Assembly: GCA_965219455.1 (NCBI GenBank)
Contig: OZ244744.1
Coordinates: 1,920,001 to 1,984,000 of the forward strand
Reading direction: 5' to 3'
Source of the DNA: Candidatus Latescibacterota bacterium
GTDB lineage: Bacteria > Latescibacterota > UBA2968 > GCA-2709665
DNA length: 64,000 bases
Part shown: in pieces, positions 1-63,185 of the stretch
How positions within the stretch are numbered: position 1 is the first letter of the stretch
Layout: every line of letters begins with the position of its first letter
The notes under the pieces: model-generated
Told to the model about the DNA's origin: nothing
Seen by the model: the letters and a program-made list of their open reading frames with translations, nothing else
The model's database searches: none
Made by a program: the position numbers and the translations under genes

Positions 1-2546
1 GCGCCGCGCTGCAGGAGGTCGCGGTGGCGTTCCAATGTGAGATCGAGAACGGCATCGAGCAAGGCGTGTCCCGGGCACACGAAGGCAGCGGGCGTTTGCC
101 CGTGCGGCGCCAGGTGTGTCTTGTCGAACGCAATGCGTTCGTAGCGCGCAAGCACCGGTTCTCCGACGCCGATCTGCCGGTCGCGGTTGCGCACAGGCGC
201 CGGGACGTGTGTAATTTCGTATCTGCCCGTTTCGCGCCGCCGCACCGAACCCCCCAGGCGACGGATCGCTTCGAGGAAGAACGACTCGATATAATGCGGT
301 TGCAATCGCCGGGCTTCGGCGCGCTCCATTTCCTCCCGTACTCGTGCGACACGAGTGGAATCCATCGCATCTTGCGCGAGGGCCTGTTCCTCAATCAGGG
401 ACTGCAGGTGCGGCTGGTCCACGGCTTCGCTTACCGCCTCGGAGAGTCGCGCGCGCACTTCGGGCTGCTCGCCGTAACGGATCGCCTCGATTAGCAGATC
501 GCGGAGCGGCCGGCCATCGAACTGAAGCCTGCCGAGCACGTCGAAAACCTGGCCGCCGAGCGAGCTTCGGGCCTGCTCGAGCTTGTCCAGCAGGGTGCGG
601 TACACGTCGCCCTCCCGGGTCTCTTCCGCCACCAGGTTCCACAGATGACATACCTCGGTCTGGCCGATGCGGTGGATGCGCCCGAAGCGCTGTTCGATGC
701 GGTTCGGGTTCCACGGCAGGTCGTAGTTCACCATCAGATGGGCGCGCTGAAGGTTGATGCCCTCCCCGGCCGCGTCAGTAGCGAGCAGCACCTGCACCAG
801 CGGATCGTGGAGGAACGACTCCTGGGCCTTGCGGCGATCCTCCCGCCCCATGCTCCCGTGAATCGTGACGATGCCAGAGGGCCGGCCGAGCAGCGTTGCG
901 ATACGCCGTTGGAGGTAGTTGAGGGTGTCCCTGTGCTCGGTGAAAAGGACCAGCTTCTGGCTGGGTGACGGGACGGGCGGCGGGATGGCGCCGCTGCCGT
1001 AGGGTTCGCCCTTTTCGCCACCCCTGGCGCCCAGGCCGGCTGGCGTAAAGATTTCTGCCAGCAGGTTCGAGAGTTCGCGCCACTTCGTGTCTTTGCCGCT
1101 CTTTAGAATCTCCGCGGCAAGGCCCTCAAGCCATTTGAGTGAAGCAATCTCCGCATTGAGTTCCGCGATCGTACTGGCCGCTGTTGCCTCATCCAGCACC
1201 GCGGCCTCTGCGGCTTCGACCTCCTCGTAAGGGGCGTCGTCCAAGTCTTCCACGTCCTCGGCATCGAATAATGGACCGGTCTGCTGGATCGTTTCCGGTT
1301 GCCTGGCGCCGCGTTGCAGCAGGCTCAGTTCGCGAAGGCGGCTTTCCAGGCGCTCGCGCCGCCGCCTCAGCGACTGGTGGATCGCCTCGGGTGATGACGC
1401 GAGGCGCCGTTGCAGGATGGTGAGCGCAAAACCGACGGTGCCCGCGCGGGTGTCGCTTTGCAGCGCCTCGGCGCGATTGAACTCTTCGCGGACGTATTCG
1501 GTCACTTCCCTGTACAGCCGAGCTTCGGCGTCGGTGAGCCTGTATGGCACCGAATACGCGATGCGCTCCGGGAACAGCGGCCGGCCGTCGAACTTTAACA
1601 GGTTTTCCTTCACCATGCGGCGCATCAGATCCGAAACATCCACCTGATGAACGCCATCCCTGAAACGTCCCTCGAAGCGGTCGCCATCCAGCAGGGCGAG
1701 GAAGAGTTGAAAGTCCGCCTCCTTGCCGTTGTGCGGCGTCGCCGTCATCAACAGAAAGTGACGGGTGAGGTTCGACAGGAGTTGCCCCAGGCGGTAGCGT
1801 TTGGTGTACCGCACCTCGCCGCCAAAGAAGGTCGCCGACATTTTGTGCGCTTCGTCGCAGACCACCATATCGTAGCGGCAGTCCGGAGCGCTCAGTTTGG
1901 CCTGGAGGTCCTCGTTGCGGGCGAGTTTGTCCAGCCGGGCGATGGCGAGATCGTTTTCGAGGAACCAATTGCCCGTACGGGCGGCGTCGAGTTTGTCGTT
2001 CGTCAGAATATCGAAAGGGAGGTTGAAACGCCGGTAGAGTTCATCCTGCCATTGCTCGGCGAGGCTGCCGGGACATACCACAAGACACCGCCTGAGATCG
2101 CCGCGTGCGACGAGTTCCTTCATCAACAGTCCGGCCATGATTGTTTTTCCCGCGCCGGGATCGTCCGCCAGCAGGAAGCGAAGAGGCTGGCGAGGCAGCA
2201 TGGCCTCGTACACCGCAGTGATCTGGTGCGGTAGTGGTTCAACAAGCGATGTGTGTACGGCAAGGACGGGATCGAATAGATGGGCCAGACGGATGCGGTA
2301 GGCCTCAGACACGAGACGGAACAGCGCGCCGTCGCCATCGAAACTCCAGGGGCGGCCCTGCTCGACGATTTCGATGCGCGCCTCGTCGTGCCGGTAGAGA
2401 ATCTCCTCGGCGACCCGTCCGGAGGCCGGGCGGTAGATCAGGGTAAGTGCCCCGGAACCGTGCCATTGCACGTTCACAACGGTCACGACACCGTCAGGAA
2501 CGATGCCACGGACCGTCGCGTCGGGTTGGAGATCCTCGAGTTTCAT
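1..2546 (-). CDS. SNF2-family (SF2) helicase, 3' end outside window; resembles helicases of DUF499/DUF1156 restriction-like or DISARM-like systems
   Basis: Absent from the ORF track because it runs off the window. Manual translation from ATG 2546 gives MKLEDLQPDATVRGIVPD..., with LPHQITAVY, LLADDPGAGKT (Walker A), CDEAHK, MTATPHNG and AGEGINLQ...YDLPWNPNRIEQRFGRIHRIGQ. Confidence 0.9.
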   Translation of the reverse strand, partial: MKLEDLQPDATVRGIVPDGVVTVVNVQWHGSGALTLIYRPASGRVAEEILYRHDEARIEIVEQGRPWSFDGDGALFRLVSEAYRIRLAHLFDPVLAVHTSLVEPLPHQITAVYEAMLPRQPLRFLLADDPGAGKTIMAGLLMKELVARGDLRRCLVVCPGSLAEQWQDELYRRFNLPFDILTNDKLDAARTGNWFLENDLAIARLDKLARNEDLQAKLSAPDCRYDMVVCDEAHKMSATFFGGEVRYTKRYRLGQLLSNLTRHFLLMTATPHNGKEADFQLFLALLDGDRFEGRFRDGVHQVDVSDLMRRMVKENLLKFDGRPLFPERIAYSVPYRLTDAEARLYREVTEYVREEFNRAEALQSDTRAGTVGFALTILQRRLASSPEAIHQSLRRRRERLESRLRELSLLQRGARQPETIQQTGPLFDAEDVEDLDDAPYEEVEAAEAAVLDEATAASTIAELNAEIASLKWLEGLAAEILKSGKDTKWRELSNLLAEIFTPAGLGARGGEKGEPYGSGAIPPPVPSPSQKLVLFTEHRDTLNYLQRRIATLLGRPSGIVTIHGSMGREDRRKAQESFLHDPLVQVLLATDAAGEGINLQRAHLMVNYDLPWNPNRIEQRFGRIHRIGQTEVCHLWNLVAEETREGDVYRTLLDKLEQARSSLGGQVFDVLGRLQFDGRPLRDLLIEAIRYGEQPEVRARLSEAVSEAVDQPHLQSLIEEQALAQDAMDSTRVARVREEMERAEARRLQPHYIESFFLEAIRRLGGSVRRRETGRYEITHVPAPVRNRDRQIGVGEPVLARYERIAFDKTHLAPHGQTPAAFVCPGHALLDAVLDLTLERHRDLLQRG

Positions 2547-2656: not shown

Positions 2657-2847
2657 CGAGGGCAGGATGCCCTCGGTCCCAGGAACGGCGCTTTCGCGTT
2701 CGAGACTCTGGCTGGCATCGCGAACTAAACCTTAAAGGCATACTGCCCCCGTTCAGTACCTGATCCACCAGTATCCGGACCGAGGGCATCCTGCCCTCGA
2801 ATAGCAGGTGACCAATCAATACCCGCATCGTGGGCATCTTCCCCTCG
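2657..2847. repeat. REP array downstream of RAYT (palindrome CGAGGGCAKSMTGCCCTCG, about 48-bp period)
   Basis: Copies at 2657-2675, about 2735-2750 (degenerate), 2781-2799 and 2829-2847. Confidence 0.85.
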
Positions 2848-2863
2848 ACCAGAATTTGATCCA

Positions 2864-3598
2864 TCAATCCCGGGAACACCGATCGTAGCAACTGCTCCAT
2901 TCCCAGTCTTCCGGATTGGTGCACAACCCCGCTTTTACCGGGTTCAAATGGATATAATTTACAATCGCTTCGAAGTGATCGTCGTCGCGAACGAACCGGT
3001 CGAAATAGTCCTCATGCCAGAACTTTCCATTCCGCTCCAGCATCTTGTTCGCCTGTTTGGCCGTGTAAGATTTCCAGGAGTGCGCAATACCGGACAGGGA
3101 GTGATCGTCCAGTGGTATGACCAGTACATGGACATGATTGGGCATGACGACCCACGCATGCAGATTATACAGGACACCATCGAAGTATTGCAGGGAATCG
3201 CGCACAAGGGCAGCGATCTCGGGACGCCGCAACCAGCACGCACCATGGCCCTGATCCAGCGCCTCCTCAATCCGACGACGTTTGTGGTGCTCCGCTTCCG
3301 GCAGTCCCTTCAGTTCGCGCTCCCATTGTTGGAGCAGGTGTTGCGGCAGGCTGTCCCCCAATCTGAAACAGACGTGTTGGGGAACTTCCCCGGCTTCAAA
3401 GTGCGGAAGATGGGTGCGGTGGTATCGGCTCGACGGTGCCACACCGGATGTTGAAGCCTTGGGATTGAGGGTATCTTGCCCTCGGTCAGTAAATGATCCA
3501 CCGGTGTCCGGATCGAGGGCATCCTGCCCTCGAATAGGAGGTGACCGATCAATACCCGCATCAAGAGCATCTTGCCCTCTGCTTGGACTGGACTTCAT
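2864..3598 (-). CDS. rayT: REP-associated tyrosine transposase (RAYT, Y1 HUH family)
   Basis: HLPH, WVVMPNHVH (HUH), WKSYTAK, FWHEDYFDRFVRD, YIHLNPVKAGL and DWEWSS motifs; flanked by REP palindromes. Start uncertain because the N-terminus is translated REP sequence. Confidence 0.9.
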   Translation of the reverse strand: MKSSPSRGQDALDAGIDRSPPIRGQDALDPDTGGSFTDRGQDTLNPKASTSGVAPSSRYHRTHLPHFEAGEVPQHVCFRLGDSLPQHLLQQWERELKGLPEAEHHKRRRIEEALDQGHGACWLRRPEIAALVRDSLQYFDGVLYNLHAWVVMPNHVHVLVIPLDDHSLSGIAHSWKSYTAKQANKMLERNGKFWHEDYFDRFVRDDDHFEAIVNYIHLNPVKAGLCTNPEDWEWSSCYDRCSRD

Positions 3599-3840
3599 AA
3601 ATCCTCAATTACCGCAACTGACGCGTTACATTACATGCGAAACCAGATCGGAGATGGCGGCGCAACACCGGAAAAGGGAGGCTTGGGACCGAAGGCATCC
3701 TGCCCCGCTCAGTACCTGATCCACCAGTATCCGGACCGAGGGCCTACTGCTTCCATTGCATCAGAAACCATATCAGAAATGACGGCGCGAATACCTCGCC
3801 CATTAGCCGTCGAGGGCAGGATGCCCTCGGTCCCAGGGGA
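3466..3840. repeat. REP array at the 5' end and upstream of RAYT
   Basis: Copies at about 3467-3484, 3514-3532, about 3564-3580, about 3690-3708 and 3811-3829. Spacers (TGATCCACCRGTRTCCGGA; AATAGSAGGTGACCRATCAATACCCGCAT) match those of the downstream array. Confidence 0.85.
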
Positions 3841-10044: not shown

Positions 10045-12924
10045 TCAAAAACCAGGCATGAAGTCCGGTGCGGCCTGGAACTCGGTCGCGCCGGGGATGG
10101 CTTCGGGCTGAACCGTGTATACCCCGCCGGGAACCACGAAAAACGCGGTGTTCCGGTTGGCCTCAACGCGGGTGTTGAACCGAACCTTACCGTCCTGGCC
10201 GCGGATACTCCATGCGCCCGGAGCCAGGCCGGCCAGCAGCAACTGGCAGCTCTCATCGGCCCCCGCGTCCACATGCAGCGCCTGCGTGAGCAGTTTACCG
10301 GTCCTGCTCAGGACCACCACCCGGTCAGCCAGCGTGACAACGAAGGCTTCAGGGAGTTCCACAAGATCAACCGGCAGATCCGGCCCCTTATCATCGGACA
10401 TCGACATGACCGTCAGAAACACATCGTTGCCCTGCTCTTTGGCGGGCGAGAACAGTACGCGATGGCCGTTGGCTTCCGGTCGGTCGGGTTTTGGTGGTGT
10501 GAAGAACTGCCCGAACACGCTGTTGGCGTCCTTGCCGCTCAGGACCTGCAGGTTCCGCTCACCCGCCTTTGGCCGTAGCATTCGGAGAGTGACCTTGCCG
10601 CCCACCTCAGAGTTGCTGTTTCTCAGGATGACGCCGTCGGCCGTGGTTTCAGGCGGGCTGAGGGTGTTGACCTGCCAGTATTTCCTGAACTCCGGCCTGG
10701 CGGTGGTCATGTTGTCCAGGATGATCAGCACCGCAGGGGTCCGGGCGTTGTCGAGGTTGAGGAAGCAGAAGGTCCGCACGTAGTCCACAATCTTCTTGCT
10801 GTACGCCGATGTCAGGTTGACCGAGAAGTAGCTGTAGAACGGCCGCTGTGGAGACGGGCCGAAGTCGGCTGAGAGGACGTCCCCGTTGGCGAATGTCGGA
10901 TCCGTACGTGCCTGTTCCGGCGTGGTCGGGCAGGATTGAATGAAACGGGCGCCTCCGTCGTTGGCGGTATTCCGAAGGAACTGCTCGTCAGGATCGACCG
11001 CCAGCATCATGCTGTGCGAAATCGAACGCTTGCAGAAGTTGAAATCGTAGGGCATTCCATAGAAATGGTACTGCCCCAGGTCAGCCGCCTGCAGACCACG
11101 GTAGTAAATCTGGAAACTGCCCGCGTCAGCGTGCTGGTGATTGCCGAAGTGATACCCCCCGCCCTTCATTTCCACCACCACGTCGGACACACCTCGGCCC
11201 ATGTTCCAGCCGGTTCGGGCAACCATTGAACCGAGGATCGGGCCAAAATCGAGGGTGAGCGGCAATGAATTAAAATTCGTCGCCGCCTCCAGGTCCGGGT
11301 CGTTCAGCAGCAGCACCAGGATCGGGTCGGAGGGCAGCCCGCCCTGCCGCTCGAAGTCGCGCTTGATGACCGGATCGTTGCTGTATGCGTAACTGAGCAG
11401 TGCGGTAGATCCGAGACTTGCGGGCCTGCCGTCGGAAAATCCGTCGCCGTCCCGCAGGGTCTCTTCGTTCGGCAGGCGCATGTAAAGCCAGAACTTGCAG
11501 ACATCCGCGATGTTGTCATCGAAGACCCGCTCGCCGGCCATGCGGTAAAAGAGCCAGGCGGCGTGCATATCCCAGCCGAACCGGTACGGGCCGTAACTGA
11601 CGCCCTGGTTGTGGCGCGGGGACTGGTATTCGAACCGGCGCATCGGCGCCAGCTCTTCAAGCATGCGGTAGGAGCAGTAGCGATACGGTACCGGATCCTC
11701 GTCGTAGATAGCGATGGCCATGCAGAGCAGATCGCGGTTGACCTGCGCCTCGTTGCCATGGCCGTTGACGATCATCTGCTTGAATGGCGGCCAGCCGATT
11801 TCCATGTCGTCGGCGAGGCGCATGAGATCGCCACGGATACTGTCGCGGTCGTCGGGTGTCATCAGTTCGTAGCACCAGTCATAAACCTGTGCGGCCGAGT
11901 AGATGGCCTGGCCGATTTCCCGGGTAATGTCGAGCAGATTTCCGAATTCGACCGCGGCGAGATAGTCGCGGATCAACGCCACCGCTTCCTGGCCGCGCGT
12001 CTCTTCGCCATTCATCAGGTAAACGAAAGCCCTGGCTACGGCCGCTTTCTCGAGCCCGGAGTTATAGCTGACTTCCGTACCCGGTTCAACTTCAAATGCG
12101 ACTGGTTCGGCCGCCATTTCCCTGACCTGGGCCCAAAGCGGCGCGTTTTCACCCTTCGTGAGGTTCGCCCGAACCTTCGGCAGCGACTGCTCATTCACCC
12201 AGATGCGCGGCCGGGATGCCGGCGGAACGACCGTTGGCCGGTAGGCGGTCACGGCCGCCGGGACTTCCGGAGGCGTGTACGGGCTGACTTCGAGGTAATC
12301 GAGGCGTACGCTCTCCGGCAGCCAGATCCGGATCTCCTGCTCCTGTGCGTTGAGATCGAACTTGCCCGTCACCTGCGTACAGCTCTCCGAACGGCTCCAC
12401 GGCACGAACACCACGCGCTTGGTGGGGCGGCCACCGCCGACAGCGATCATCAGGTGCGGCGAATCATGCTTGCTCCCGGCCTCGCGCATCGCCTCGCTGC
12501 CCCTGGCGTCCGTGGCCGCGTGCGTGCGAATCACGTACCGCCCGGCCCTGGAGGCCCGCACCTTGAAAACCAAATCCGGTTCGGTGCCGGGCGACCCCAC
12601 GTTGGCGGCCAGACCAGCCTTGAGCGAGACGCCTTTCCCACCGGTGAACGAGCCTTGCGCTACGACCTCTGCTCGACCGGGATCGATCCCGGCGGCCTCC
12701 GCCTGCATGACAACCGATCCGCTAACGGCAAAAGTCCTGGACGGTGTGGGAGCACTGGTACCTTCTCCGGTTTTCATGACGTGAGTCTCCTCGGCGTATG
12801 TTGAGACGGCAATGAAGAGCGTTGCGATGCACAGACGGCGCAACGCTTGCAACAGTCGATGGACTTCCTTGATCATCCTTTTGCTTTTTTCCACTTTCCC
12901 GATCGATTCATGAATTCGCCGCAA
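10045..12924 (-). CDS. Heparinase II/III-like polysaccharide lyase, probably secreted
   Basis: RPRIWV, ARTGW, GNHQHADAGSFQIYY, HSMML. Signal-like stretch LCIATLFIAVSTYA; the true start may be slightly downstream. Confidence 0.85.
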   Translation of the reverse strand: MRRIHESIGKVEKSKRMIKEVHRLLQALRRLCIATLFIAVSTYAEETHVMKTGEGTSAPTPSRTFAVSGSVVMQAEAAGIDPGRAEVVAQGSFTGGKGVSLKAGLAANVGSPGTEPDLVFKVRASRAGRYVIRTHAATDARGSEAMREAGSKHDSPHLMIAVGGGRPTKRVVFVPWSRSESCTQVTGKFDLNAQEQEIRIWLPESVRLDYLEVSPYTPPEVPAAVTAYRPTVVPPASRPRIWVNEQSLPKVRANLTKGENAPLWAQVREMAAEPVAFEVEPGTEVSYNSGLEKAAVARAFVYLMNGEETRGQEAVALIRDYLAAVEFGNLLDITREIGQAIYSAAQVYDWCYELMTPDDRDSIRGDLMRLADDMEIGWPPFKQMIVNGHGNEAQVNRDLLCMAIAIYDEDPVPYRYCSYRMLEELAPMRRFEYQSPRHNQGVSYGPYRFGWDMHAAWLFYRMAGERVFDDNIADVCKFWLYMRLPNEETLRDGDGFSDGRPASLGSTALLSYAYSNDPVIKRDFERQGGLPSDPILVLLLNDPDLEAATNFNSLPLTLDFGPILGSMVARTGWNMGRGVSDVVVEMKGGGYHFGNHQHADAGSFQIYYRGLQAADLGQYHFYGMPYDFNFCKRSISHSMMLAVDPDEQFLRNTANDGGARFIQSCPTTPEQARTDPTFANGDVLSADFGPSPQRPFYSYFSVNLTSAYSKKIVDYVRTFCFLNLDNARTPAVLIILDNMTTARPEFRKYWQVNTLSPPETTADGVILRNSNSEVGGKVTLRMLRPKAGERNLQVLSGKDANSVFGQFFTPPKPDRPEANGHRVLFSPAKEQGNDVFLTVMSMSDDKGPDLPVDLVELPEAFVVTLADRVVVLSRTGKLLTQALHVDAGADESCQLLLAGLAPGAWSIRGQDGKVRFNTRVEANRNTAFFVVPGGVYTVQPEAIPGATEFQAAPDFMPGF

Positions 12925-13031
12925 AATCGGCGTCCAATCCCAATAATGCGTTTAGACTCCTCAGTCGTTTCATCGGGTCTCGCTGCGATGTCTGTACCGA
13001 GTTTGTCGAAGCAACCGCGTCTCACCGCCCC

Positions 13032-13240
13032 CTAACGTCCCCTATTCCCTTGCCCTTTTTCTTGCTTCGCCCAAGAAAAAGAGCGAAAAAGAAGGGCGCC
13101 GCTCGGCGCGGGGCCGGTTTTTCCACGAATCTCCCCAGTGGCAGCGACGAGCGATTGTAACCTTCGTACCAATACGACCGAACGGTGCTTCAATGCGGGA
13201 CGGATCAGCGTGGAAAAACCCCCAGCCCCCAGACCGGACG
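13032..13240. repeat. Structured about 210-nt repeat element, copy A (candidate ncRNA or non-autonomous element)
   Basis: First about 92 nt differ by one base from 26207 onward; the rest keeps covarying stems (see findings). Confidence 0.8.
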
Positions 13241-13256
13241 CGCCGTCGTTGCAACT

Positions 13257-13281
13257 GTAGGGGCAACCCTTGTGGTTGCCC
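13257..13281 (+). repeat. GTAG-type REP (GTAGGGGCAACCCTTGTGGTTGCCC)
   Basis: GTAG followed by an imperfect palindrome; a second copy at 26856-26880 has a compensatory A-T to G-C change. Confidence 0.8.
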
Positions 13282-13386: not shown

Positions 13387-13457
13387 CTCCCCTCTACTTT
13401 TCCTTTAAAAGAGGGGCCGGGGGGTGAGGTCCCGCGAACGAGGGCACCTTACCCTCG
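13387..13457 (+). repeat. BoxC/PIT-like element fused to a RAYT-type REP
   Basis: CCCCTCT...AGAGGGGCCGGGGGGTGAGGTCCC followed by CGAGGGCACCTTACCCTCG (13439-13457); related module at 26771-26836. Confidence 0.65.
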
Positions 13458-13481
13458 TCGCGCGCGTTCTTTCCACAATTG

Positions 13482-14504
13482 TCATTCCGATCCTCCCGAT
13501 CGAATCTCCGCCAGCGAGACCGTTCGGTGTTCCCTGGCCGAGATGGTGATGGCTTCGGCAATTTCAACGTCCAGCAGGGCATCCTCGGGTGGATTTCGGG
13601 ATTCGCGGCGACGCTCTATGGCATCCAGAAAGGCGCCAGCCTGCCGGACCGTCGAAGACGGCTCGTTTTCGAATTCCCGAACCTCCGAGCGGCCCTCCCT
13701 ATATACAGTTATGGAATCCCTGCCGGGCGGGCTGTCGGCATTGGGCATGATTCCGCCCTTGGCACAGACAAATCGCGGCTGCGGGTCAGACATCCCAGCA
13801 GGGCCGATATAGCTGGCCGTGGCCGAAGTAAAAGCGCCGTTTTCGAATCCGATCAGGGCCCCGCACGTCTCCTCCACAACGTGACCGGGCGCCGTATTCC
13901 GTATCCGATTGGCCATCGCGGACACGGTGGTCGGCCTGCCGAGAATCCAGCGGACGGCATTCAGATGGCAGTAGCTCATGTGGGTTAGCGGCATGCCCCC
14001 GCTGGCTTCCTGGTCATAGTACCAGCCGTCCGGATCCGGGTTCCAGAGGGCCATGGCCACGGCCATCACCGGCGCTCCCAGTTCGCCTCCAACCACCAGG
14101 CGCCGGATTTCCTCCCAGGCAGGATCGTAACGGCGCTGGAACCCGGCCTCCACGATCCGCCCCGACCGGTTCGCCATCTCCACAATCCGTTTCCCATTCT
14201 CCATAGACGACGCGAGACAGCCGCCGATGAGAAGGTCGTAGCCTGCATCCAGCGCCCAGATGGTCACCTCGTCCTGAACGCGATGCGGAACCTCGATGAG
14301 GACCGCGTCAGGACGGGTTTGGTCCAACCTCCGGAAATCATCGTCAAAAACGGCGCAACCCAGCTCACTCGCGCAGATTTCGGCGCGCTCCCGACGGCGC
14401 GAAGCCACCGCGCAGATTTCCGCCCGGCCGGTATCCAGAAACGCCCTTCCGCGTGTCCGGGCCATGTTCCCCGCTCCCACAATTGCGATCCGCTTCTTCG
14501 ACAT
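13482..14504 (-). CDS. Gfo/Idh/MocA family oxidoreductase
   Basis: MSKKRIAIVGAGNMA Rossmann start, GFQRRY; the EKP motif is degenerate. Confidence 0.85.
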   Translation of the reverse strand: MSKKRIAIVGAGNMARTRGRAFLDTGRAEICAVASRRRERAEICASELGCAVFDDDFRRLDQTRPDAVLIEVPHRVQDEVTIWALDAGYDLLIGGCLASSMENGKRIVEMANRSGRIVEAGFQRRYDPAWEEIRRLVVGGELGAPVMAVAMALWNPDPDGWYYDQEASGGMPLTHMSYCHLNAVRWILGRPTTVSAMANRIRNTAPGHVVEETCGALIGFENGAFTSATASYIGPAGMSDPQPRFVCAKGGIMPNADSPPGRDSITVYREGRSEVREFENEPSSTVRQAGAFLDAIERRRESRNPPEDALLDVEIAEAITISAREHRTVSLAEIRSGGSE

Positions 14505-14600
14505 GGCGCACCCTTTCGAGTTTTCGTTTGACATCCGGCGGTTCCGCGCGCATAATTTCGCTATCGCCGGTCCATCTGTCATGCGAAATTTGAAACCGCT

Positions 14601-23680: not shown

Positions 23681-26089
23681 TCAAAGCGCTTCGATAAGCG
23701 TTCCGGCCGCCACAAAGGTATCCTTCGCCTCGCCGCGAGCGTCGAACGTGGCGGCGCCGACCTCGCCGTCGGTCCTGATGCCCGCTCCCGTCAGGACCCG
23801 GCCCGCTGCCGGTTGCAGGAGTACAGCCGCATGGCCGGCGGCCAGGGGAAGGGTGACCGCATACCCGCCGTCAATCTCCACCAATTCGGCCTCGCCGTTC
23901 AATTCTTCAGCCGACCGATGCGGCCTCAGGACCGTCACGAACGTCTGTTCGCCTGCAGGCGAGGAAGGAATTGCCGTCAGGTGATACTCGACAAGCTGGA
24001 TCCGGGCCCGAGGCGGCGGATCGAACCGGTCGGTCTGGCTCACCGCAAGCCCGTTGGGATAAAGGAACGACACCTGGCATCCGGCGCCGCCGTTGACCAC
24101 CCGAACGTCCCGCTGGTTCCGGACATCCATCTCCACGGGGGCGTGCAGGCGCCATTCGAAACTCGCGGGTTCGGGCGCATGCAACGTATCGAAGATGAGG
24201 ATTGCTTCCGGCTTCACGAAAAGGATGCGGCGGGTAAACCTCTCGAGTTTGCCCGCGTAGGCGCCGCCCGCCTCTCCCGCCACGTAGTCGAAAGTTTCGG
24301 AGGTGTGGAAATCCAGGATCTCGCCCGCTGCTTCGCTGGCGTTCGGTATCTGCCCCTCACCGTTGACGGTGATGTTATTCACCGACTTTGTATGGTGCAT
24401 CCATTGTCTGTGGTGCGCGCTGCCGTGGATGTCGCGGCGTCCGGTGCGAATCAGCAACCGCTCTCCGAAGGCGTAGAGCAGGAACGAATTCTGAGCTTCG
24501 TACCCGTGGCTGTGTGATCCTAACGGGCTGCTCTTGAAGATCAGCTCCACGTTGTTGCGGGCATCCTCCAGATCGGTGTTGAAAACGGCCTGGCCGGTAC
24601 CCCGGAAGCAGCGAGACGTCGGCAGGTCAACCGGCCGCTTTGCCTCCACCCGGGGCAGCGCGCCCCGGACAAAGCCGATATAACCGGGCTCGGAAGGCAA
24701 CTCACCGTGCGCCTCAACGTACCATTGCCAGTACGGATTCCGTGCCATTGCAGAAAAAAGGGCCATAACGCCGCGATTCTGCCCGGATTCGAGGTGGGCC
24801 GTCAGATCCCCGAAACCGCCGCCTCGCGTACCCGGCGGTTGGAGATACATCGGATAATAGCCGACCTTTGAGAAATAGGGCTTATTGAAGGCATCGATGC
24901 CCATTGCCTCCCGCATAATGTCCGCCCACCAGGTGAATCGCTGGATGTAACTCCGCCAGTAGCCCATGCCCTGGTGCCAGCCCCCGTCATCGTCACTCCA
25001 CACCGGATACGTGTTGGCGAACACGTTCGCGGCGAACCACGCCCAGTCCGCGGCCTCGGGAATCTCGTCCAGAAACGCAATGCCCACCTCTCCCAGAAAA
25101 TGCCAGGACCGGGTATCGTGGCTCCCGTACGGACGCCAGAGGAAACGCGGACAGAGATGCGCGGACATTTCCCTGCCCCGAACGGTCATCATTCTGCGGC
25201 ACCGCTCCCGTTCGTCTTCCGTCAGCAGATCATTGAGATAGCTGTACGTCCGGGAGAAATAGTACGCGTAGGGCATCCCGGCTTCATCGTTATACCGAAA
25301 TCCCGTCGCCCCTTTCGGATCCCATTCGGCGCAGGCCATCAGCAATTCCCGGGCAAGTTGGCCGTACTCCTCCCGACCTCCCAACAGCCGGGTGAAAGCC
25401 AGTGTCGCCGCGCCGTTCAGAACGGCGATGGTATACTCCCGGTTCGGCCACCAGATCGCCCGCCACGCCTCACTGAGCCGCACCGTCCCTTCGGGATAGA
25501 GCGGCGGCTCTTCGGTGGGCGGCGGATTCTCGAGCAATTTCTCCGAGGCGGCCACGAGTTCCTCGTATTTGGCCGCCAGGTCCGTTCTGGCGCGCTGTCG
25601 CAGTTCCGGCACCTGTTCCGGCCTTACGAACAGCCGTGGATGGCTCTTTGGTACTCGCGCCAGGAGGTCGTCGCGGGAAGGCAGCGGAAGCGCGTTCGCG
25701 TCCTCCGCAACGCTGAACATCCTCACCGTGCTCCATTCGGACGTCTCTCCAGCCCGATCGGTAAAGCGGAATCGCCAGAACCAGCGACCCGGCGTCAGGG
25801 TGCGGGGTGGGCAGTGGACGTTGAACGTCACCCCCGTCGCCTCGTACTCCACGTCTGCAAAGCTGCTATCCCGCACGCACTGAACGTCGTAGCTCGCAGC
25901 GTCCTCCTGCGGCCGCCAGGAAAAACCCGGGGGCGTCACCTGAGAGACGCTCCCTTCCGCGGGACGAAAACCCCACTCGCCCGGTTGGCCGGGCGTCTCG
26001 TCGATCTCGGGACGCCCGGCTGCAAGCGTCCGTGACGCCGCCATCAGCAGCAGCAGCGCTCCTCCAATAATGACCAGAATCCCCATCAT
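23681..26089 (-). CDS. DUF4962/heparinase II/III-like oligosaccharide lyase, secreted
   Basis: Signal peptide from ATG 26089 (RBS AAAGGAG); HPRLF, DGGWHQG..YW, GFGD, SHSHGYEAQNSF, NNITVNG. Confidence 0.88.
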   Translation of the reverse strand: MMGILVIIGGALLLLMAASRTLAAGRPEIDETPGQPGEWGFRPAEGSVSQVTPPGFSWRPQEDAASYDVQCVRDSSFADVEYEATGVTFNVHCPPRTLTPGRWFWRFRFTDRAGETSEWSTVRMFSVAEDANALPLPSRDDLLARVPKSHPRLFVRPEQVPELRQRARTDLAAKYEELVAASEKLLENPPPTEEPPLYPEGTVRLSEAWRAIWWPNREYTIAVLNGAATLAFTRLLGGREEYGQLARELLMACAEWDPKGATGFRYNDEAGMPYAYYFSRTYSYLNDLLTEDERERCRRMMTVRGREMSAHLCPRFLWRPYGSHDTRSWHFLGEVGIAFLDEIPEAADWAWFAANVFANTYPVWSDDDGGWHQGMGYWRSYIQRFTWWADIMREAMGIDAFNKPYFSKVGYYPMYLQPPGTRGGGFGDLTAHLESGQNRGVMALFSAMARNPYWQWYVEAHGELPSEPGYIGFVRGALPRVEAKRPVDLPTSRCFRGTGQAVFNTDLEDARNNVELIFKSSPLGSHSHGYEAQNSFLLYAFGERLLIRTGRRDIHGSAHHRQWMHHTKSVNNITVNGEGQIPNASEAAGEILDFHTSETFDYVAGEAGGAYAGKLERFTRRILFVKPEAILIFDTLHAPEPASFEWRLHAPVEMDVRNQRDVRVVNGGAGCQVSFLYPNGLAVSQTDRFDPPPRARIQLVEYHLTAIPSSPAGEQTFVTVLRPHRSAEELNGEAELVEIDGGYAVTLPLAAGHAAVLLQPAAGRVLTGAGIRTDGEVGAATFDARGEAKDTFVAAGTLIEAL

Positions 26090-26206
26090 CCTGTAACTCC
26101 TTTCGAACAACCTTGAAGATGCGATCGCCAGGCCCATTCGGGAATCCACTGGAAAAGCCCCTTCATTTTTGCCATGTCCTCCGGTGAGATAGAATCCCCC
26201 CTCCCA

Positions 26207-26416
26207 CTAACGTCCCCTATTCCCTTGCCCTTTTTCTTGCTTCGCCCAAGAAAAAGGGCGAAAAAGAAGGGCGCCGCTCGGCGCGGGGCCGGTTTTTCCG
26301 TGAATCACCTCACGGGCATAAATGGGAATTGGGTGCCCCGCGAGCCGTTACGTTGTACCAATACAACGGTGTTGGACGGATTAACACGGAAAAACCCCCA
26401 TCTCCACCTCCGGACG
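26207..26416. repeat. Structured repeat element, copy B
   Basis: Homologous to 13032-13240 with compensatory stem changes. Confidence 0.8.
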
Positions 26417-26474
26417 GGCCTGAGGTAGACCCATAAGGATCGCCGCTCGGTTCAACATTTGTACCGTCTTTACC

Positions 26475-26730
26475 TGTCCGCTGATAGCTCGCCCTCAGAT
26501 AGGCATTCCGTTGTCAAACGCGAGGTTCCCGGCGAGCACTCCCAGAGCACAGCGTGTAGTCCCGTCCAGCACAGAGGATCGTTGTTCTTCCGTGGCTGGC
26601 AGGGCAAAATCCCCGGTAGGCCCTCAAAGGGTATTCGCGCGGTGGATATGGCAGGTCCCGCGCCCAGCGGCGACTTTTGGTTCCTTTTGGTCGCTTCAAA
26701 AGGAACACGCCGTAGGCAGGGAATTTGGGG
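26475..26730. repeat. Divergent inverted relative of the structured element, copy C (left end uncertain)
   Basis: Reverse complement carries hairpin GTTCCTTTTG/CAAAAGGAAC, then CAAAAG, then CGCCGCTGGGCGCGGGACC, matching the core CGCCGCTCGGCGCGGGGCC of copies A and B. Confidence 0.6.
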
Positions 26731-26770
26731 AGATGTGAATGTTGAATTTGGTTTTACCCTTTTATTTTCG

Positions 26771-26880
26771 TTCCCCCGCCGCCGGAGGCGCGGAGCCGGG
26801 GGGAGAGGTCCCGGGATCGAGGGTATCCTGCCCTCGACACGCCGAAGATGCAATTGTAGGGGCGACCCTTGTGGTCGCCC
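26771..26880 (+). repeat. BoxC-like element, RAYT-type REP (26818-26836) and GTAG REP (26856-26880)
   Basis: GCCGGGGGGAGAGGTCCC, CGAGGGTATCCTGCCCTCG, GTAGGGGCGACCCTTGTGGTCGCCC. Confidence 0.7.
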
Positions 26881-26948: not shown

Positions 26949-28930
<1,982 letters not shown>

Positions 28931-29030
28931 TAACAGCTAATCGCTGATAGCTGGGTCTCAGGGTGGTCCTCTCCCGTCTACCCTCTTACGTCTCACCGAT
29001 TCAAGCTGACAGCTGACAACCTATAGCTAA
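28931..29030. repeat. Heptamer repeats forming the intron 5' exon
   Basis: TAACAG CTAATCG CTGATAG CTG at 28931-28953 and GCTGACA GCTGACA at about 29005-29018; the repeat continues as CTGATGGC at 26941-26948. Confidence 0.75.
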
Positions 29031-29043
29031 TTGCCGGTTTTCA

Positions 29044-30096
29044 TCAACTGTAATATTTCGGGTTCGTCACCGTCAGAGAGGTCTCCTCCAGCGGCAATTT
29101 GACCTTCGCGCCGCCCTTCCGATGGGAAACATGGAAAGCCAGCGCGATTTCCAGTGCCTTTCGTCCGTCCTCGCCCGAGCAGGACGGCGCCTTTTCCTCC
29201 TCGATACACGTTACCAGTTCCTCGATCGCCTTTACAACACCGCTCCTGGCTTCGATATTCTGGGGAATCTTTCGCCCCACCAGCGCGCGTCCTTCATAGA
29301 CGTCTTCCGCCACGGTCCAGAGTTCGTCCACGTTGTAGCCGATCCGGATCCTGCCTTTCGTTCCCACCAGATCGAACTCGAACCCCACGGGAGATCCTTC
29401 CACCGCGTTCACGAAGGCGTGCATCCCGTTCTGAAACTGGATATACCCGCTGCCCCCCGGGTCGTCATGCGGCTTTCGCCGGCCGTCCAACCGGCCGAAC
29501 ACCCACGCCACCTCGCCACCGGACCAGAACCGCATCAGGTCGAACATGTGGGTTGCCTCGTGCACCAGTTCCGGCCCCATATTGCCCGCGATGCTGATCA
29601 ACTCCCCGATCGTGCCCCCGGCAACCAGGTCCCTTACCCGGACCATCAGTGGGTCCCACCGGTTGTGGTAGAGGACCGACAGCGTCGTATTCGCTTTTTT
29701 GCACGCTTCGATCATGCGGTCCGCTTCCGGCAGGCTGGTTGCCATCGCTTTCTCGCACAGGACCGCCTTCACGCCCGCTTCGGCGGCCGCCACCGTCATA
29801 TCGGCGTGAAGGTGCGCGTGCGTCGCCACGCTGACGATGTCCAGCGCTTCCGCCTCCAGCATGTCGCGATAATCGGCGTAGAGGCGATGCACGCCCCACC
29901 GGGCGGAAAAATCGGCCAGCCTCTCGCCATTGATATCCGCGGCGGCCACCACCTCGGTGCTGCCCACCTGGCCATAGGCGCCCGCCAGAACACCGGGCTG
30001 GGGAACCCGACCCGGCTGTCTGCGCTTCTCATCGTCCATCGTGCCGGCCATGCGCCCACAGCCGATGATTCCCACGCGGTACGTCGTCTTACTCAC
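29044..30096 (-). CDS. Gfo/Idh/MocA family oxidoreductase
   Basis: GTG start SKTTYRVGIIGCGRM, LCEKAM, THMFD. The 560-aa track ORF is an over-extension. Confidence 0.9.
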   Translation of the reverse strand: MSKTTYRVGIIGCGRMAGTMDDEKRRQPGRVPQPGVLAGAYGQVGSTEVVAAADINGERLADFSARWGVHRLYADYRDMLEAEALDIVSVATHAHLHADMTVAAAEAGVKAVLCEKAMATSLPEADRMIEACKKANTTLSVLYHNRWDPLMVRVRDLVAGGTIGELISIAGNMGPELVHEATHMFDLMRFWSGGEVAWVFGRLDGRRKPHDDPGGSGYIQFQNGMHAFVNAVEGSPVGFEFDLVGTKGRIRIGYNVDELWTVAEDVYEGRALVGRKIPQNIEARSGVVKAIEELVTCIEEEKAPSCSGEDGRKALEIALAFHVSHRKGGAKVKLPLEETSLTVTNPKYYS

Positions 30097-30116
30097 GTTT
30101 ACGCCCACCTCGGATT

Positions 30117-31088
30117 CTACATTACCCGGCACTCCAGGTCCGTCGCCATAGCCGCTGCGGGCGTATGGTGATGGTCCATCGGCGGGGTTGTCAGGTAGTG
30201 TACGTACATGATGCAGGGCTGCCCGGGGAACGGGAAGATCGTCCGGAAGCGGCCATTGGGTTCCACCTCGTAGCGTACGGCGGCTTTCCCGGACCACGCG
30301 CCGACAGCCGCGACGTCCACGGTGGACGTGTTGTCCGTCACCACGGCCCAGCTTGTGCCCTCGCCGTCGGCCCGCTGTCTCGCGCCGAACGCGGAGTACA
30401 GGGGCCCATCCGGCAGACTGAAGTTGCTTTCGACGACAACTGTCGCAATTTGCGACACATCGCCCGACACGACCTCGTGCTCGGCCCGGAACCAGGAAAC
30501 CCCCGAGTAAAAGGTCATATGCGCGACAAACTCGTATCCGCCGCCGTAGGTCCCGTCCACCCTCAGACGGGCCGTCCGGGGACCACGCGTCCGGATATCG
30601 ATCCGGACCTCGCCCGAGGGGAACAGGATCCTGCCGTCCTTGAGCACGAGCGCCGGCCCGGGCGCTCCCGCCCCGTGAAACGCCCTGCCGTCGAAAATCA
30701 CGTTCTCCACCAGGTTGAAGCGCCATTGCCGGACCTGGTAAATCACCGGCCCCTGCTGCACCTCGATCGGGTCCTTGCCGGCGCGCACGTCGATGGGATT
30801 CGCAGGCGGGGCGGGCGGCGGCGTCCCCTGTCCGTACTCGAACGTGAGGACCTCCTCCCCTCCAGCGGGGAGCCGGGCAGGAAACGCGACCTCCGCGGTC
30901 CTCACGCTGCCATCGTCCCAGGTCTCCAATCCGTCCACCTGCACGGGACGCGGTTCGCCGCCGCCGTCCAGCATTCGCGCCGGGCCGCCCGCGGTGAACT
31001 CGCCGGGCTCAAAGCCCACCGTTACGGCGCACGGAAAATTCCTCCTGGCAAACCCATCCCGTTCGGAAATCCGGATCTCTTTGCGCAT
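30117..31088 (-). CDS. Hypothetical protein resembling exo-rhamnogalacturonan lyase/YetA N-terminal domains
   Basis: RRNFPCAVTVGF..G, PVQV...WDDGSVR, IRTRGPRTA; RBS GAGG. Confidence 0.6.
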   Translation of the reverse strand: MRKEIRISERDGFARRNFPCAVTVGFEPGEFTAGGPARMLDGGGEPRPVQVDGLETWDDGSVRTAEVAFPARLPAGGEEVLTFEYGQGTPPPAPPANPIDVRAGKDPIEVQQGPVIYQVRQWRFNLVENVIFDGRAFHGAGAPGPALVLKDGRILFPSGEVRIDIRTRGPRTARLRVDGTYGGGYEFVAHMTFYSGVSWFRAEHEVVSGDVSQIATVVVESNFSLPDGPLYSAFGARQRADGEGTSWAVVTDNTSTVDVAAVGAWSGKAAVRYEVEPNGRFRTIFPFPGQPCIMYVHYLTTPPMDHHHTPAAAMATDLECRVM

Positions 31089-58160: not shown

Positions 58161-60203
58161 TCATGGCCCCGTCGAAGTGACGACCTTTAGGCTAAGGCTC
58201 TTTGAGCCCTCCAAAAACAGATCGACGTCCTTCTGAGTGGAAACGGTCGCCGCGGGACCCTGCTGCGGAATGCCCCCTCCCAGGCCGCCCGTCAAGACGC
58301 CTAAAAGTCCGCCTTCGGGCAAAGCAGTCGAGTCCGCGGGTGCTTCGAATGGCATGGCGAACATCAGCCGGGCTTTCAATACGACGTTCTTGTCCTCGCC
58401 ATTGACCCTTCCAAAGACGTCGTCCAGCGTCTCCTCGCTCCCGAATCCATCGGAGGGCCCAAACAGGCCGAACAAAGGCGGCGGTCCATCTCCCCCGGCA
58501 ACGTCTTCCGCCAACATCGCAGCCGAACCGGCTTCGAGCCGGTAGACGCCTGCGGGAAACGTATCCGGCACGCTGAGCGTCAATTCGATCACCCGGTCTA
58601 TGCGGCGTCCAACGCGCAACGCGGCGGTAACGGCCAGCATGTCCCCGGGACTTATAACGGTGTCTGCGGTCACTTCAACGATCCTGGCGAAACGGGGCTC
58701 GGGAATCACCTCTACATGGACCCCTGCATCCGTCACCTGCAATGCGTAATCGTCCCTCGTCATCAGATCGGCGAGCGAGGAAGAGAGGTCCGCACCGGCG
58801 TTCCGGACCAGAGAGGCGAGATGTCCCTCGGGGGAGGCGTAGAGACGGGACCGCGCGAGCGTGGAATCGGAGCCGTCAAAGGAGATATCCGCGGTCACGA
58901 GTATACTGTGGTCCGGGTCCTGCTCGACCCGGTTGGAAAGAGGTGTGAAGAACGCACTAACGACGAGAGAGATCGACCTATTAGTGCTCACGCCGACGGT
59001 GGGCATCCTATGCAAGAGCTCCACGACGCCACCCGATGGGAACGTATACACGCTTTTGATCGGCACGAGGTCCGGCCCGTCATCAAGCACGCCGCGAACC
59101 CCGGGCAGGCGGTCTTCGGTGAGCGTGCCGCGCACCGTCGGGTTCAGCGTAGCGAATTTAAACGGCGCGAACACATTGGATATCTCTCCGAGCACTTTTG
59201 CTTCGATTATGGGAAGCGCCACAGGTCCTGCTTCCTGCATGGGATGTCCGAAACCATAGATCCGGTCGCCGTCCACGAAGGAGATGGTTCCCAGGCTGGC
59301 GAAGGTAAGCTCGCCCAGCAGCAAACCCACGGCCAGCGGCCTGCCGGGCGCAAAGCTCGTCTGGCGCTCCCTCGTCAAACCGGCGGCGACCGCGTCGCTC
59401 AGGAGAGACGGACTCCCTTCCGGCGATGGCTGGACACGATTGAGACCGGTACTCAACAGCGGGATGTCCAGGGGGACGATCCGGCTTCCCTCCCACGTAG
59501 CCGCTCGCTTGGCCAGGGGTACCGCCCCCCTGGTGCCGATAACCCATTCCATGGGAGTCGCAAAAAAGTAGTAAGGCGGGCTGTCCTGGGCGTCGAAACC
59601 ATAAGCAATGGCGCCCCACACGCCCTGCTCCGTGAAGATGGGAGAACCGCTCATGCCCTTTGAAATACCTCCCAGGCTTACCAGGACAGAATCGGAGGCT
59701 TCCACCATGTAGACCGGCATGGGAGGCAGGAAATCGTCCACCACCTGGATGAACTTCATTTCCAGGTCCGTGAGCTCGCCATTGGCGAATTCCGTCCGCA
59801 TGAACACACGCGTGCCCGCAGGCGCCGACCGGACCGAGTCGATCGGCACAACCCTTGAAAGATCCCAGGGTTGCAGCTTCCCGGAGGAAACGTTCTTCCC
59901 GTAGTTCCGTGCAAAGATCACAAAGTCCGAAAACCCGATTTCCCCGTCACCGTTCAGATCGAACCTCGCATCATATCCGTCATCGCCCGGACTTAGTCCG
60001 AATTTTGCCGCAAACTGCAAAAAATCACTGAAGCTGACCGTCCCGTCGCCGTCGAAGTCCGGAAGAGACGCGGTGTTATGGTCATGGGAATTGACGGTGA
60101 TCCCTTGTAATGTCGTGCGATCTGCATCCGCGTCCGAACCCGTAGCGACGAATGCCAACAACGCGAAAGCGGAAATTAACACAATATTCTTTTTGGAAAA
60201 CAT
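58161..60203 (-). CDS. Secreted dockerin/EF-hand plus SpoIVB-like (S55) peptidase, copy 1
   Basis: Signal peptide, DFDGDGTVSFSDF and DLNGDGEIGFSDF, GGISKGMSGSP, GFGHP. Confidence 0.85.
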   Translation of the reverse strand: MFSKKNIVLISAFALLAFVATGSDADADRTTLQGITVNSHDHNTASLPDFDGDGTVSFSDFLQFAAKFGLSPGDDGYDARFDLNGDGEIGFSDFVIFARNYGKNVSSGKLQPWDLSRVVPIDSVRSAPAGTRVFMRTEFANGELTDLEMKFIQVVDDFLPPMPVYMVEASDSVLVSLGGISKGMSGSPIFTEQGVWGAIAYGFDAQDSPPYYFFATPMEWVIGTRGAVPLAKRAATWEGSRIVPLDIPLLSTGLNRVQPSPEGSPSLLSDAVAAGLTRERQTSFAPGRPLAVGLLLGELTFASLGTISFVDGDRIYGFGHPMQEAGPVALPIIEAKVLGEISNVFAPFKFATLNPTVRGTLTEDRLPGVRGVLDDGPDLVPIKSVYTFPSGGVVELLHRMPTVGVSTNRSISLVVSAFFTPLSNRVEQDPDHSILVTADISFDGSDSTLARSRLYASPEGHLASLVRNAGADLSSSLADLMTRDDYALQVTDAGVHVEVIPEPRFARIVEVTADTVISPGDMLAVTAALRVGRRIDRVIELTLSVPDTFPAGVYRLEAGSAAMLAEDVAGGDGPPPLFGLFGPSDGFGSEETLDDVFGRVNGEDKNVVLKARLMFAMPFEAPADSTALPEGGLLGVLTGGLGGGIPQQGPAATVSTQKDVDLFLEGSKSLSLKVVTSTGP

Positions 60204-62887: not shown

Positions 62888-63185
62888 CCGGTGCAATCCT
62901 CCCCGTTGTACGTTGGTGTTAACGCGGTTACATAGAGTGGTTTGGCAAACCCGCTGCCGATATGCCGACCGGTTTCTGACTCAAAAGGGCTTGTCGAAAA
63001 AATTGCTGCGGAAACAGGTCATGGTTCATCGATTGATTTCCCTTCCTGCTTTTCGTGACAGATCGTAAGGGCGTCGGCTTTCCTTATGTCCATATGACAG
63101 CCGGGATCGGCCAGGGCGGTAACACCTTTGCAAACAGCGATTTTGACATGAAACGGTCGACAGTAGCGTGGTCTGCGAAGCACCT

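Follow-up and report, generated by a model that had tools for sequence, protein, structure and literature searches.

What kind of bacterial element keeps its fold as its sequence changes? The question arises in a 64,000-nt stretch of contig OZ244744.1 (positions 1,920,001 to 1,984,000, forward strand; GenBank assembly GCA_965219455.1) from a Candidatus Latescibacterota bacterium, referred to here in its full length as the window, where an earlier note had described structured elements of about 210 nt with compensatory base changes, two of them (A and B) in the same orientation and a third (C) inverted. Our analysis indicates that A, B and C are very probably copies of a previously undescribed, lineage-specific family of modular, structured interspersed repeats in the Latescibacterota and close relatives, and not a gene-specific leader. 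We also propose that the element is a transcript-end module read from its reverse strand; held jointly, a confident description and a doubtful mechanism make a claim that should be taken as tentative.

Three copies of a structured element in the window

The limits of the copies were set with nhmmer using hidden Markov models (HMMs) of two element types. Copy A is a whole type-1 element (13023-13246, plus strand, E 3.8e-61), copy B is also type 1 (26199-26424, plus strand, E 1.2e-68), and copy C, a homologous type-2 element (26486-26746, minus strand, E 2.1e-70), is convergent with B. These limits are slightly wider than first described, and the structured family with an inverted third member is borne out; searches with both HMMs found no family copy beyond these three in the window. 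The core sequence CGCCGCTSGGCGCGGGRCC occurs exactly three times in the 64 kb (13097-13115 and 26272-26290 on the plus strand, 26654-26672 on the minus strand), compared to 0.05 occurrences expected, and none of 100 shuffles reached three. As shown by alignment (repeat families D7 and D14), A and B are nearly identical from about 13032 and 26207 over the first 96 nt or so, up to the outer stem, and then diverge. Within the 12-bp outer stem two compensated pairs differ between them (ACG/CGT vs GTG/CAC), and the inner hairpin is topped by GTA-CCAA-TAC in both; a sequence check agrees throughout with the positions and sequences reported earlier for these stems and hairpins. When folded against shuffled sequences, A, B and C gave z scores of -2.74, -3.15 and -2.10, with 1, 1 and 6 of 200 shuffles folding as well.

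The copies belong to a dispersed family of two types

The wider family was collected with one core-pattern scan of species-representative genomes, which yielded at least 116 loci (L numbers below), and all counts are lower bounds. There are at least 120 core matches including the three of the window; at least 11 are type 1, at least 22 are type 2, and 87 of those listed are unrelated GC-rich matches, although three of these 87 non-typed matches (L018, L053 and L087) have arms of the family joined to a different body or to none. HMM searches of the window and all loci with nhmmer raised the numbers to at least 15 type-1 and at least 24 type-2 copies plus arm-only pieces, and the added copies have imperfect cores. 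The copies listed fall in 12 assemblies, nine of them from Candidatus Latescibacterota, two labelled Gemmatimonadota and one unclassified. One locus, L010, is the orthologue of the B/C locus and is 98-99% identical to it, which places the window in the same species as L010 or in a very near one.

The family does not correspond to a known one in the databases searched. At the gathering score, Rfam 15 matched only a group II intron in the window (26949-27095 and 28766-28904) and gave no match at 20 family loci, in agreement with the earlier description of an unannotated structured element; with E up to 10, the regions of A and B/C returned noise only, the best hit reaching 19.7 bits against a cut-off of 45. 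There was no blastn match of A, C or the B-C pair among plasmids and phages, the four core strings were not found in a full-text literature search, and literature searches on repeats of Latescibacteria and on MITE (miniature inverted-repeat transposable element) and REP (repetitive extragenic palindromic) sequences of sponge symbionts listed nothing on the family. The interiors of A, B and C, for which matches elsewhere had been envisaged, matched only family members in the window and the 116 loci, and a reading of the interiors as guide-like sequences was rejected for this reason.

A conserved arm is followed by a body of nearly fixed length

On its forward strand, the element consists of a conserved arm of about 100 nt followed by a body of nearly fixed length with a fast-changing interior, to a total of roughly 225-260 nt. 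The arm runs from a pyrimidine-rich lead-in through a hairpin, H1, in which the 5′ strand is all pyrimidine and the 3′ strand all purine, to an A-rich linker and a 19-nt GC core. H1 has 13 bp in type 1 (A and B) and 10 bp of other sequence in type 2 (C). In A, H1 was identified from the sequence and its fold at 13052-13084 on the plus strand, with the pyrimidine strand at 13052-13064, the loop at 13065-13071, the purine strand at 13072-13084 and one C.A mismatch. The linker read from the sequence of A, GAAAAAGAA (13085-13093, plus strand), is the mirror image of AAGAAAAAG in the H1 purine strand, an arrangement that recurs in the type-1 variants. The core of A, found by pattern match (13097-13115, plus strand), contains the 4-bp hairpin S1 (CCGC/GCGG; 13099-13102 with 13108-13111, plus strand), which overlaps an alternative pairing, S2 (CGGC/GCCG), that abuts the body.

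The body of A (13116-13220, plus strand), delimited by sequence, fold and covariation of its closing stem, is closed by the 12-bp stem P1 (13116-13127 with 13209-13220; GGTTTTTCCACG/CGTGGAAAAACC), and its 81-nt interior keeps the junction motifs GAATC..CC.CAG and GGACGGA and a hairpin at 13164-13177. In B, H1 lies at 26227-26259 and the core at 26272-26290 (plus strand), P1 at 26291-26302 with 26385-26396 (GGTTTTTCCGTG/CACGGAAAAACC) and the inner hairpin at 26351-26368. In C, read on the minus strand, H1 lies at 26706-26680 and the core at 26672-26654, P1 (26645-26636 with 26556-26547) is partly decayed, with 7 of 10 pairs left, and a 3′ hairpin domain extends to about 26486.

These features recur across the family. 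Type-1 P1 consists of GGTTTTTCC plus three variable pairs and type-2 P1 of GCAYRGCGCG with CGCGCYCTGC, and the junction motifs beside P1, GAAT..CCTCA on the 5′ side and GGACGGA on the 3′ side, are common to both types. The body measures 105-106 nt in 9 of 11 type-1 copies and 110-113 nt in all 22 type-2 copies, and type 2 extends past the body into an extra hairpin domain of about 70 nt. The type-1 HMM also matches type-2 copies (E 7e-10 to 4e-4), which indicates that the two types are homologous. Related copies often have one interior hairpin in common and the next wholly different, as in B, L049 and L115 and in A, L094 and L046.

The helices are maintained by compensatory changes

Covariation was tested in 14 type-1 copies (alignment A4) at 19 pairs, comprising S1, three S2 pairs and P1, against 500 shuffles and against slid controls. 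The results show that 98.1% of the cells are paired, and that 6 of the 19 pairs and 14 cells changed on both sides. The six pairs with two-sided changes compare with 1.3 ± 0.9 in the shuffles, none of which reached six, and with 0-2 in the slid controls, so the compensatory changes first noticed between A and B hold in the larger set. In L064, two adjacent S1 pairs were swapped in a compensatory manner (G-C to C-G and C-G to U-A), and in L068 one S2 and one P1 pair were compensated and one U-A pair was deleted from both P1 strands. Position 10 of type-1 P1 is A-U or G-C and position 11 is C-G or U-A, and the four type-1 variants of H1 have compensated pairs differing at positions 2 and 13. In type 2, one P1 pair is G-C in 10 copies, A-U in 7 and broken in 3, and the arm pair flanking CGGCG (N-CGGCG-N′) is Watson-Crick in all 18 copies (11 A-U, 5 C-G and 2 U-A). 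Uncompensated departures are the C.A mismatch in H1 of A, two P1 mismatches in L049 and L083, an A.C in L058 and a bulge in L044. Consensus folding of the bodies with RNAalifold recovered the closing stems only, with nothing firm inside. Taken together, these results show that compensatory substitutions, and in one case the compensated loss of a base pair, have preserved the helices.

In addition, four bases of the H1 loop are complementary to four bases just 5′ of S1, and this complementarity takes three forms: CGCC/GGCG in 10 type-1 copies, CGCG/CGCG in 2, and CGAC/GTCG in 20 type-2 copies. The match suggests a pseudoknot; it was found post hoc, and the GC-rich segment involved can also pair in other, competing ways.

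The arm is conserved beside a diverging interior

In type 2, mean pairwise identity is 0.96 in the arm (range 0.91-1.00 over 153 pairs) compared to 0.58 in the interior, which agrees with the constant scaffold and variable interior seen at first in two copies. The corresponding values for type 1 are 0.78 and 0.52, the arm value being lowered by the existence of four arm variants, all of which turn up without change in different assemblies. Between the orthologous loci L049 and L069, identity is 76-82% in the flanks, 91% in the type-2 arm and 60% in the interior, the last value being no better than the family average; either the arm has been under purifying selection in place or two copies arrived separately. 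From these patterns we infer sequence-level purifying selection on the arm, under which the element would act as a folded single strand and not merely as decaying junk.

Gene context does not fit a regulatory leader

The earlier note offered a cis-regulatory leader as one possibility, since A and B lie beside similar genes. At 18 further loci, 34 flanking open reading frames (ORFs) were predicted from codon-position GC and compared with Pfam, to which ORFs of the window were put as well. In the window, the context is as first described: on the gene strand, both type-1 copies lie upstream of heparinase-like genes (10045-12924, minus strand, HepII_C match; 23681-26149, minus strand, DUF4962 and Hepar_II_III_C match) and downstream of Gfo/Idh/MocA genes (13482-14582 and 29044-30726, minus strand). 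This arrangement would suit a riboswitch-like leader of the downstream heparinase-like genes, but the genes on the arm side or the body side are unrelated at the other loci. Pfam families were found for 29 of these 34 ORFs; they come from ordinary metabolism or housekeeping, are of unrelated kinds and include CbiZ (cobinamide amidohydrolase), aldo-keto reductase, PhyH, H+-PPase, ribosomal protein S6 and TPR, as well as P450, GH3, HSP20, methylmalonyl-CoA mutase, NUDIX, sulfatase and MTHFR. Heparinase-like genes account for three of the 34 and Gfo/Idh/MocA genes for two; both kinds are common in these genomes and frequent in the window too, where there are at least five Gfo/Idh/MocA genes. Six loci lie between convergent genes, where there is no downstream gene to lead, three between divergent genes and the remainder between co-directional genes. 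The two heparinase-like proteins themselves are barely similar (27% over 83 amino acids, E 0.015). Random gene context, named beforehand as the outcome that would speak against a leader, is thus what was found, and a leader function is highly improbable. A segmental duplication of a gene with its upstream region was also considered and rejected, because the downstream proteins share so little and the similarity is confined to the element.

The position of two type-1 copies beside heparinase-like genes is accounted for by the window itself, which from 10045 to 62896 is a large minus-strand block of polysaccharide-utilisation type. Among its genes are heparinase-like ones, one of DUF4838/GH20-like type, three giant FG-GAP/lambda-carrageenase-like genes encoding more than 1200 amino acids each, BNR, PhyH and Gfo/Idh/MocA genes in several copies, and two DUF6785/DUF6784 genes together with an FtsX-like permease.

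The element is modular and may be mobile

At least eight loci carry a convergent pair of one type-1 and one type-2 copy, 44-340 nt apart (B/C of the window, its orthologue L010, L009, L012, L064, L068, L097 and L049). Solitary type-1 copies are A, L044, L046 and L058, and three more lie in loci too short to judge. The two arms of a convergent pair are inverted relative to each other, with the core and a similar outer end in common, but belong to two different types; solitary copies have a single arm. Other arrangements also show the modular build. In L053, a type-2 arm is joined to an inverted type-1 arm with no bodies and a 32-nt palindrome between them, and in L009 the core region is broken by that palindrome too, which suggests that the type-1 core is an insertion hotspot for small palindromes; the palindrome lies at about 2380-2420 in L009 and about 1960-1995 in L053, both loci being in one assembly. 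The type-2 arm is split by an insertion of about 150 nt in L048, L086 and L088, and in L115 and L018 the core is combined with other modules. The arm-splitting module resembles CTTCTACCGTCTCAC or its complement and also occurs in L018, in the interior of L083 and at about 28960-28990 in the window, beside other repeats. L049 carries type 1 and type 2 and the orthologous L069 type 2 only, a single case with boundaries blurred by other rearrangements.

These observations bear on an alternative in which the family is purely selfish, non-autonomous DNA, in one of two versions. In the first, the convergent pair is a foldback element of about 550 bp, its arms serve as terminal inverted repeats for a transposase whose gene lies elsewhere, and solitary copies are half elements; in the second, each element moves as single-stranded DNA handled by a hairpin-recognising enzyme. 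The inverted arms of the pairs, with the same 19-nt core and the similar outer end TCCCC(T/A)A(T/A)TTCCCT(T)GCC, would fit such terminal repeats, and 8 of the 12 type-1 copies that could be judged are paired. The arm-arm composite of L053, the nested insertions in L009, L048, L086 and L088, and the one presence/absence case also favour mobility, and the wobble-type mismatches in a by-eye tally show no strand asymmetry, as expected if selection acts on DNA and not on one RNA strand. However, no target-site duplication was evident at the outer arm ends of six pairs, whose outer limits are uncertain, and apart from the reverse transcriptase (RT) of a group II intron no transposase or integrase was found among the 34 flanking ORFs or the 30 Pfam-tested ORFs of the window. 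Both results weigh against this alternative and also against the reading that we propose below, and the mobile half of the original description therefore stands only in part, on the presence/absence case, the arm-only composites and the nested insertions. Against a purely selfish element in particular, most type-2 copies are solitary, the arms are 91-100% identical where the interiors have diverged to 41-60%, and the same arm variants occur in different species representatives. Constant arms in old copies are not accounted for by selection for transposition alone, and purely selfish DNA is an unlikely explanation.

Which strand could be read

Our proposal for function is a generic transcript-end or stability module on the reverse strand, comparable to the roles suggested for REP sequences and bacterial interspersed mosaic elements (BIMEs) or for SPRITE; by this analogy it is a possibility that we favour with considerable doubt. 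Transcripts of neighbouring genes would run on into the element and contain its reverse strand, in which the body and the GC hairpin would come first and the U-rich tracts and the U/A hairpin would follow. It would then act as a generic transcript-end or insulator module, forming a terminator-like barrier to 3′ exonucleases of the kind proposed for REP/BIME and SPRITE, and the family would spread or be reshuffled as non-autonomous modular DNA.

The orientation of the copies leans towards this proposal. Seven copies that are not part of a pair lie between co-directional genes, the arm-only L053 not being counted; the forward strand is antisense to the genes in six of them (A, L008, L014, L021, L046 and L065) and sense in L048. 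A simple terminator scan found in the type-1 core, on the minus strand, a 5-bp GC hairpin followed by a T-run; the type-1 core of A and B fits the consensus on both strands, with 5-bp stems, and terminator-like sites are near the shuffle expectation (3 vs 1.0 and 2 vs 1.1).

Several results weigh against the proposed transcript-end module. The orientation bias has a one-sided p of 0.06, which does not settle the strand. Copy C, of type 2, gave no canonical hairpin plus U-run in the terminator scan, and core hairpins of only 4-5 bp are weak for a terminator. Folding z scores do not separate the strands (forward and reverse -2.95 and -3.19 for type 1, -1.36 and -0.75 for type 2), and an attempt to assign the strand by folding energy was dropped, the greater stability of the reverse strand in 19 of 22 type-2 copies being lost after shuffle controls. 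Two features point to the forward strand: the predicted type-1 hairpin P2 carries GNRA-type loops (GGGA, GGAA, GCGA and GCAA) in two subfamilies, and a predicted helix keeps one G.U in 10 of 12 copies. The wobble versus mismatch tally in firm helices, made by eye, is about even (3 vs 5). A 3′-end role makes no sense at the three loci between divergent genes, no sigma-70-type promoter site was found in or beside the arms of the window, and the scan required an exact core, so the copy set may lean toward exact-core copies. Several G.U pairs were also seen by eye on the forward strand of type-2 interior hairpins.

The forward-strand features raise a further alternative, that the copies are free-standing genes for a structured non-coding RNA with a pseudoknotted 5′ arm and a three-way-junction body, acting in protein binding, regulation or catalysis. 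The GNRA-type tetraloops and the conserved G.U agree with it, as do the junction motifs that both types share although their helices differ (stem-GAAT..CCTCA and GGACGGA-stem), the fixed body length, the three complementary forms of the loop-to-downstream pairing, and an arm conserved more strongly than neighbouring coding DNA. However, a promoter-like site upstream was not found in the window, the forward RNA would have no terminator at its 3′ end, and transcripts of the convergent pairs would overlap. At least eight loci in one assembly are above what is generally expected of a regulatory small-RNA family, there is little formal covariation in the interior helices, and no Rfam family resembles the element. 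A free-standing RNA is accordingly somewhat unlikely. A resemblance of the junction motifs to known ribozymes or riboswitches was also considered and was dropped, being without Rfam support.

A more specific form of the reverse-strand module can be derived from the type-1 arm, which on that strand reads as a segment complementary to the H1 loop, UUCUUUUUC, a three-base turn, and CUUUUUCUU paired to AAGAAAAAG. The first U/C run mirrors the second, and its bases match those of the purine strand one by one in parallel orientation, an order that corresponds to a pyrimidine-motif triple helix within an H-type pseudoknot. The third position would be C.G-C in type 1 and U.A-U in type 2, and type 2 could offer only about four triples. 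Such triplexes are described in H-type riboswitch pseudoknots and in RNA stability elements (PMC7583470). On the evidence of base order, the reverse-strand arm might be an H-type pseudoknot with the U/C strand in the major groove and at most nine U.A-U or C+.G-C triples in type 1, a dispersed triple-helix cap that would end and protect upstream transcripts, spread as mobile DNA and be the equivalent in bacteria of stability elements of the ENE/MALAT1 type; or the three-way junction of the body might bind a ligand or protein or be a ribozyme. Both ideas are very unlikely to be right in this form. A small-protein reading of the reverse-strand arm, which encodes a stop-free hydrophobic-then-basic peptide, was rejected because a 1-nt loop deletion in arm variant 3 shifts the frame; the peptide pattern follows from the T-rich and then A-rich halves of the hairpin.

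Should the family be no more than an interspersed repeat, it would be of interest mainly for annotation, as a marker of an uncultured lineage for which our searches brought up no such element, and as a source of assembly breaks, since several copies sit at contig ends. If the arm is a functional RNA, it would be a dispersed, reusable transcript-end or stability module, which would be new for bacteria.

Other repeats and an intron near the elements

The group II intron of the window (26949-28929, minus strand; Rfam D1-D4 and D5/D6) has an RT/maturase ORF at 27106-28476 (RVT_1 and GIIM). It is not present at the orthologous site in L010, where the flanks are 98% identical, which indicates a recent insertion. 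A link between the element and the adjacent intron was rejected, since L010 has the orthologous B/C pair without the intron. The intron junctions read ...AGCTGTTA / GTGCG...CTAC / GCCATCAGCC and lie inside a tandem heptamer array; in L043, the same kind of intron 5′ end abuts a heptamer array, and this intron lineage may home into heptamer repeats.

Tandem heptamer arrays (NNTCAGC)n occur on the minus strand of the window at 29029-28997, 28954-28930, 13380-13332 and 26489-26472, and also, for example, in L008, L009, L014 and L064. They are often followed by A-rich runs of the CAAAAG type and flank type-2 copies on both sides at many loci; one array is found on the opposite strand, 85-135 nt past A. 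Short REP-like GC-rich palindromes, beside the elements and at other places in the window, form two families, one of the TCGAGGGCAGGATGCCCTCGA type and one of the GTAGGGGCRACC..GGTYGCCC type, found at 2632-2683, 3786-3837, 13428-13458 and 26807-26840, and at 13257-13281 and 26856-26880; both families occur in other loci too. Elsewhere in the window, dispersed and tandem 48-nt repeats (D2, D3 and D6) with short ORFs lacking a Pfam match occupy 2732-3750 and adjoin an SNF2-type helicase gene (3-2546, minus strand). The ORFs at 58161-60203 and 60866-62896 (minus strand) are adjacent paralogues with 81-84% identical DNA, one of which gave a weak EF-hand match and the other no Pfam match.

Comparison with known systems

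Among the systems closest to the family are the REP, BIME and REPIN sequences of enterobacteria and pseudomonads, which are likewise high-copy, intergenic and hairpin-forming and build module mosaics in alternating orientation. REP and REPIN sequences carry a GTAG tag and a conserved terminal tetranucleotide, usually form inverted doublets and have a RAYT transposase as partner. REP units are simple GC-rich palindromes of 20-40 nt, whereas the Latescibacterota elements measure 225-260 nt and combine an invariant arm of 100 nt with a branched body. The roles proposed for REP and BIME include mRNA stabilisation, termination and protein binding (PMC3184786). SPRITE is described as a dispersed repeat of about 105 nt that resembles a Rho-independent terminator and BOX as modular, with RNA-level roles suggested by predicted structures (PMC3184786). 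The BOX, RUP and SPRITE repeats of Streptococcus pneumoniae are alike in the modularity of BOX and in the dispersed, terminator-like SPRITE, but they have no sequence relation to the present family and come from another phylum, and the Latescibacterota elements are larger and have the hairpin plus T-run in type 1 only, where it is present on both strands.

MITEs such as Correia are also non-coding, dispersed and able to fold back, and the inverted arms of the pairs and the one presence/absence polymorphism recall them; unlike MITEs, the family showed no target-site duplication or related transposase where these were sought, its arms are of two types, and most copies are one-armed. The layout of the type-1 reverse-strand arm resembles, at the level of base order, H-type pseudoknots with U.A-U triples such as SAM-II, preQ1-II, telomerase RNA and ENE/MALAT1, but a run of nine triples, two of them C+.G-C, would greatly exceed in length those of the riboswitches, and type 2 would have only about four. 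Multi-copy bacterial RNAs in Rfam are comparable in being multi-copy, structured and of unknown function, although there is no family match. Integrons are arrays of short cassettes that share one orientation and end in attC, an imperfect inverted repeat, with an integrase gene nearby; in contrast, the present elements are flanked by chromosomal genes that are large and ordinary and stand in all three orientations, and not by an array of short cassettes.

Taken together, these comparisons show that the family is best filed beside the interspersed mosaic and terminator-like repeats and the MITEs, under no named family. What is unusual about it is the conservation across species of a 100-nt arm beside a free interior, the convergent arrangement of two homologous types, and the pseudoknot and mirror-repeat layout of the arm.

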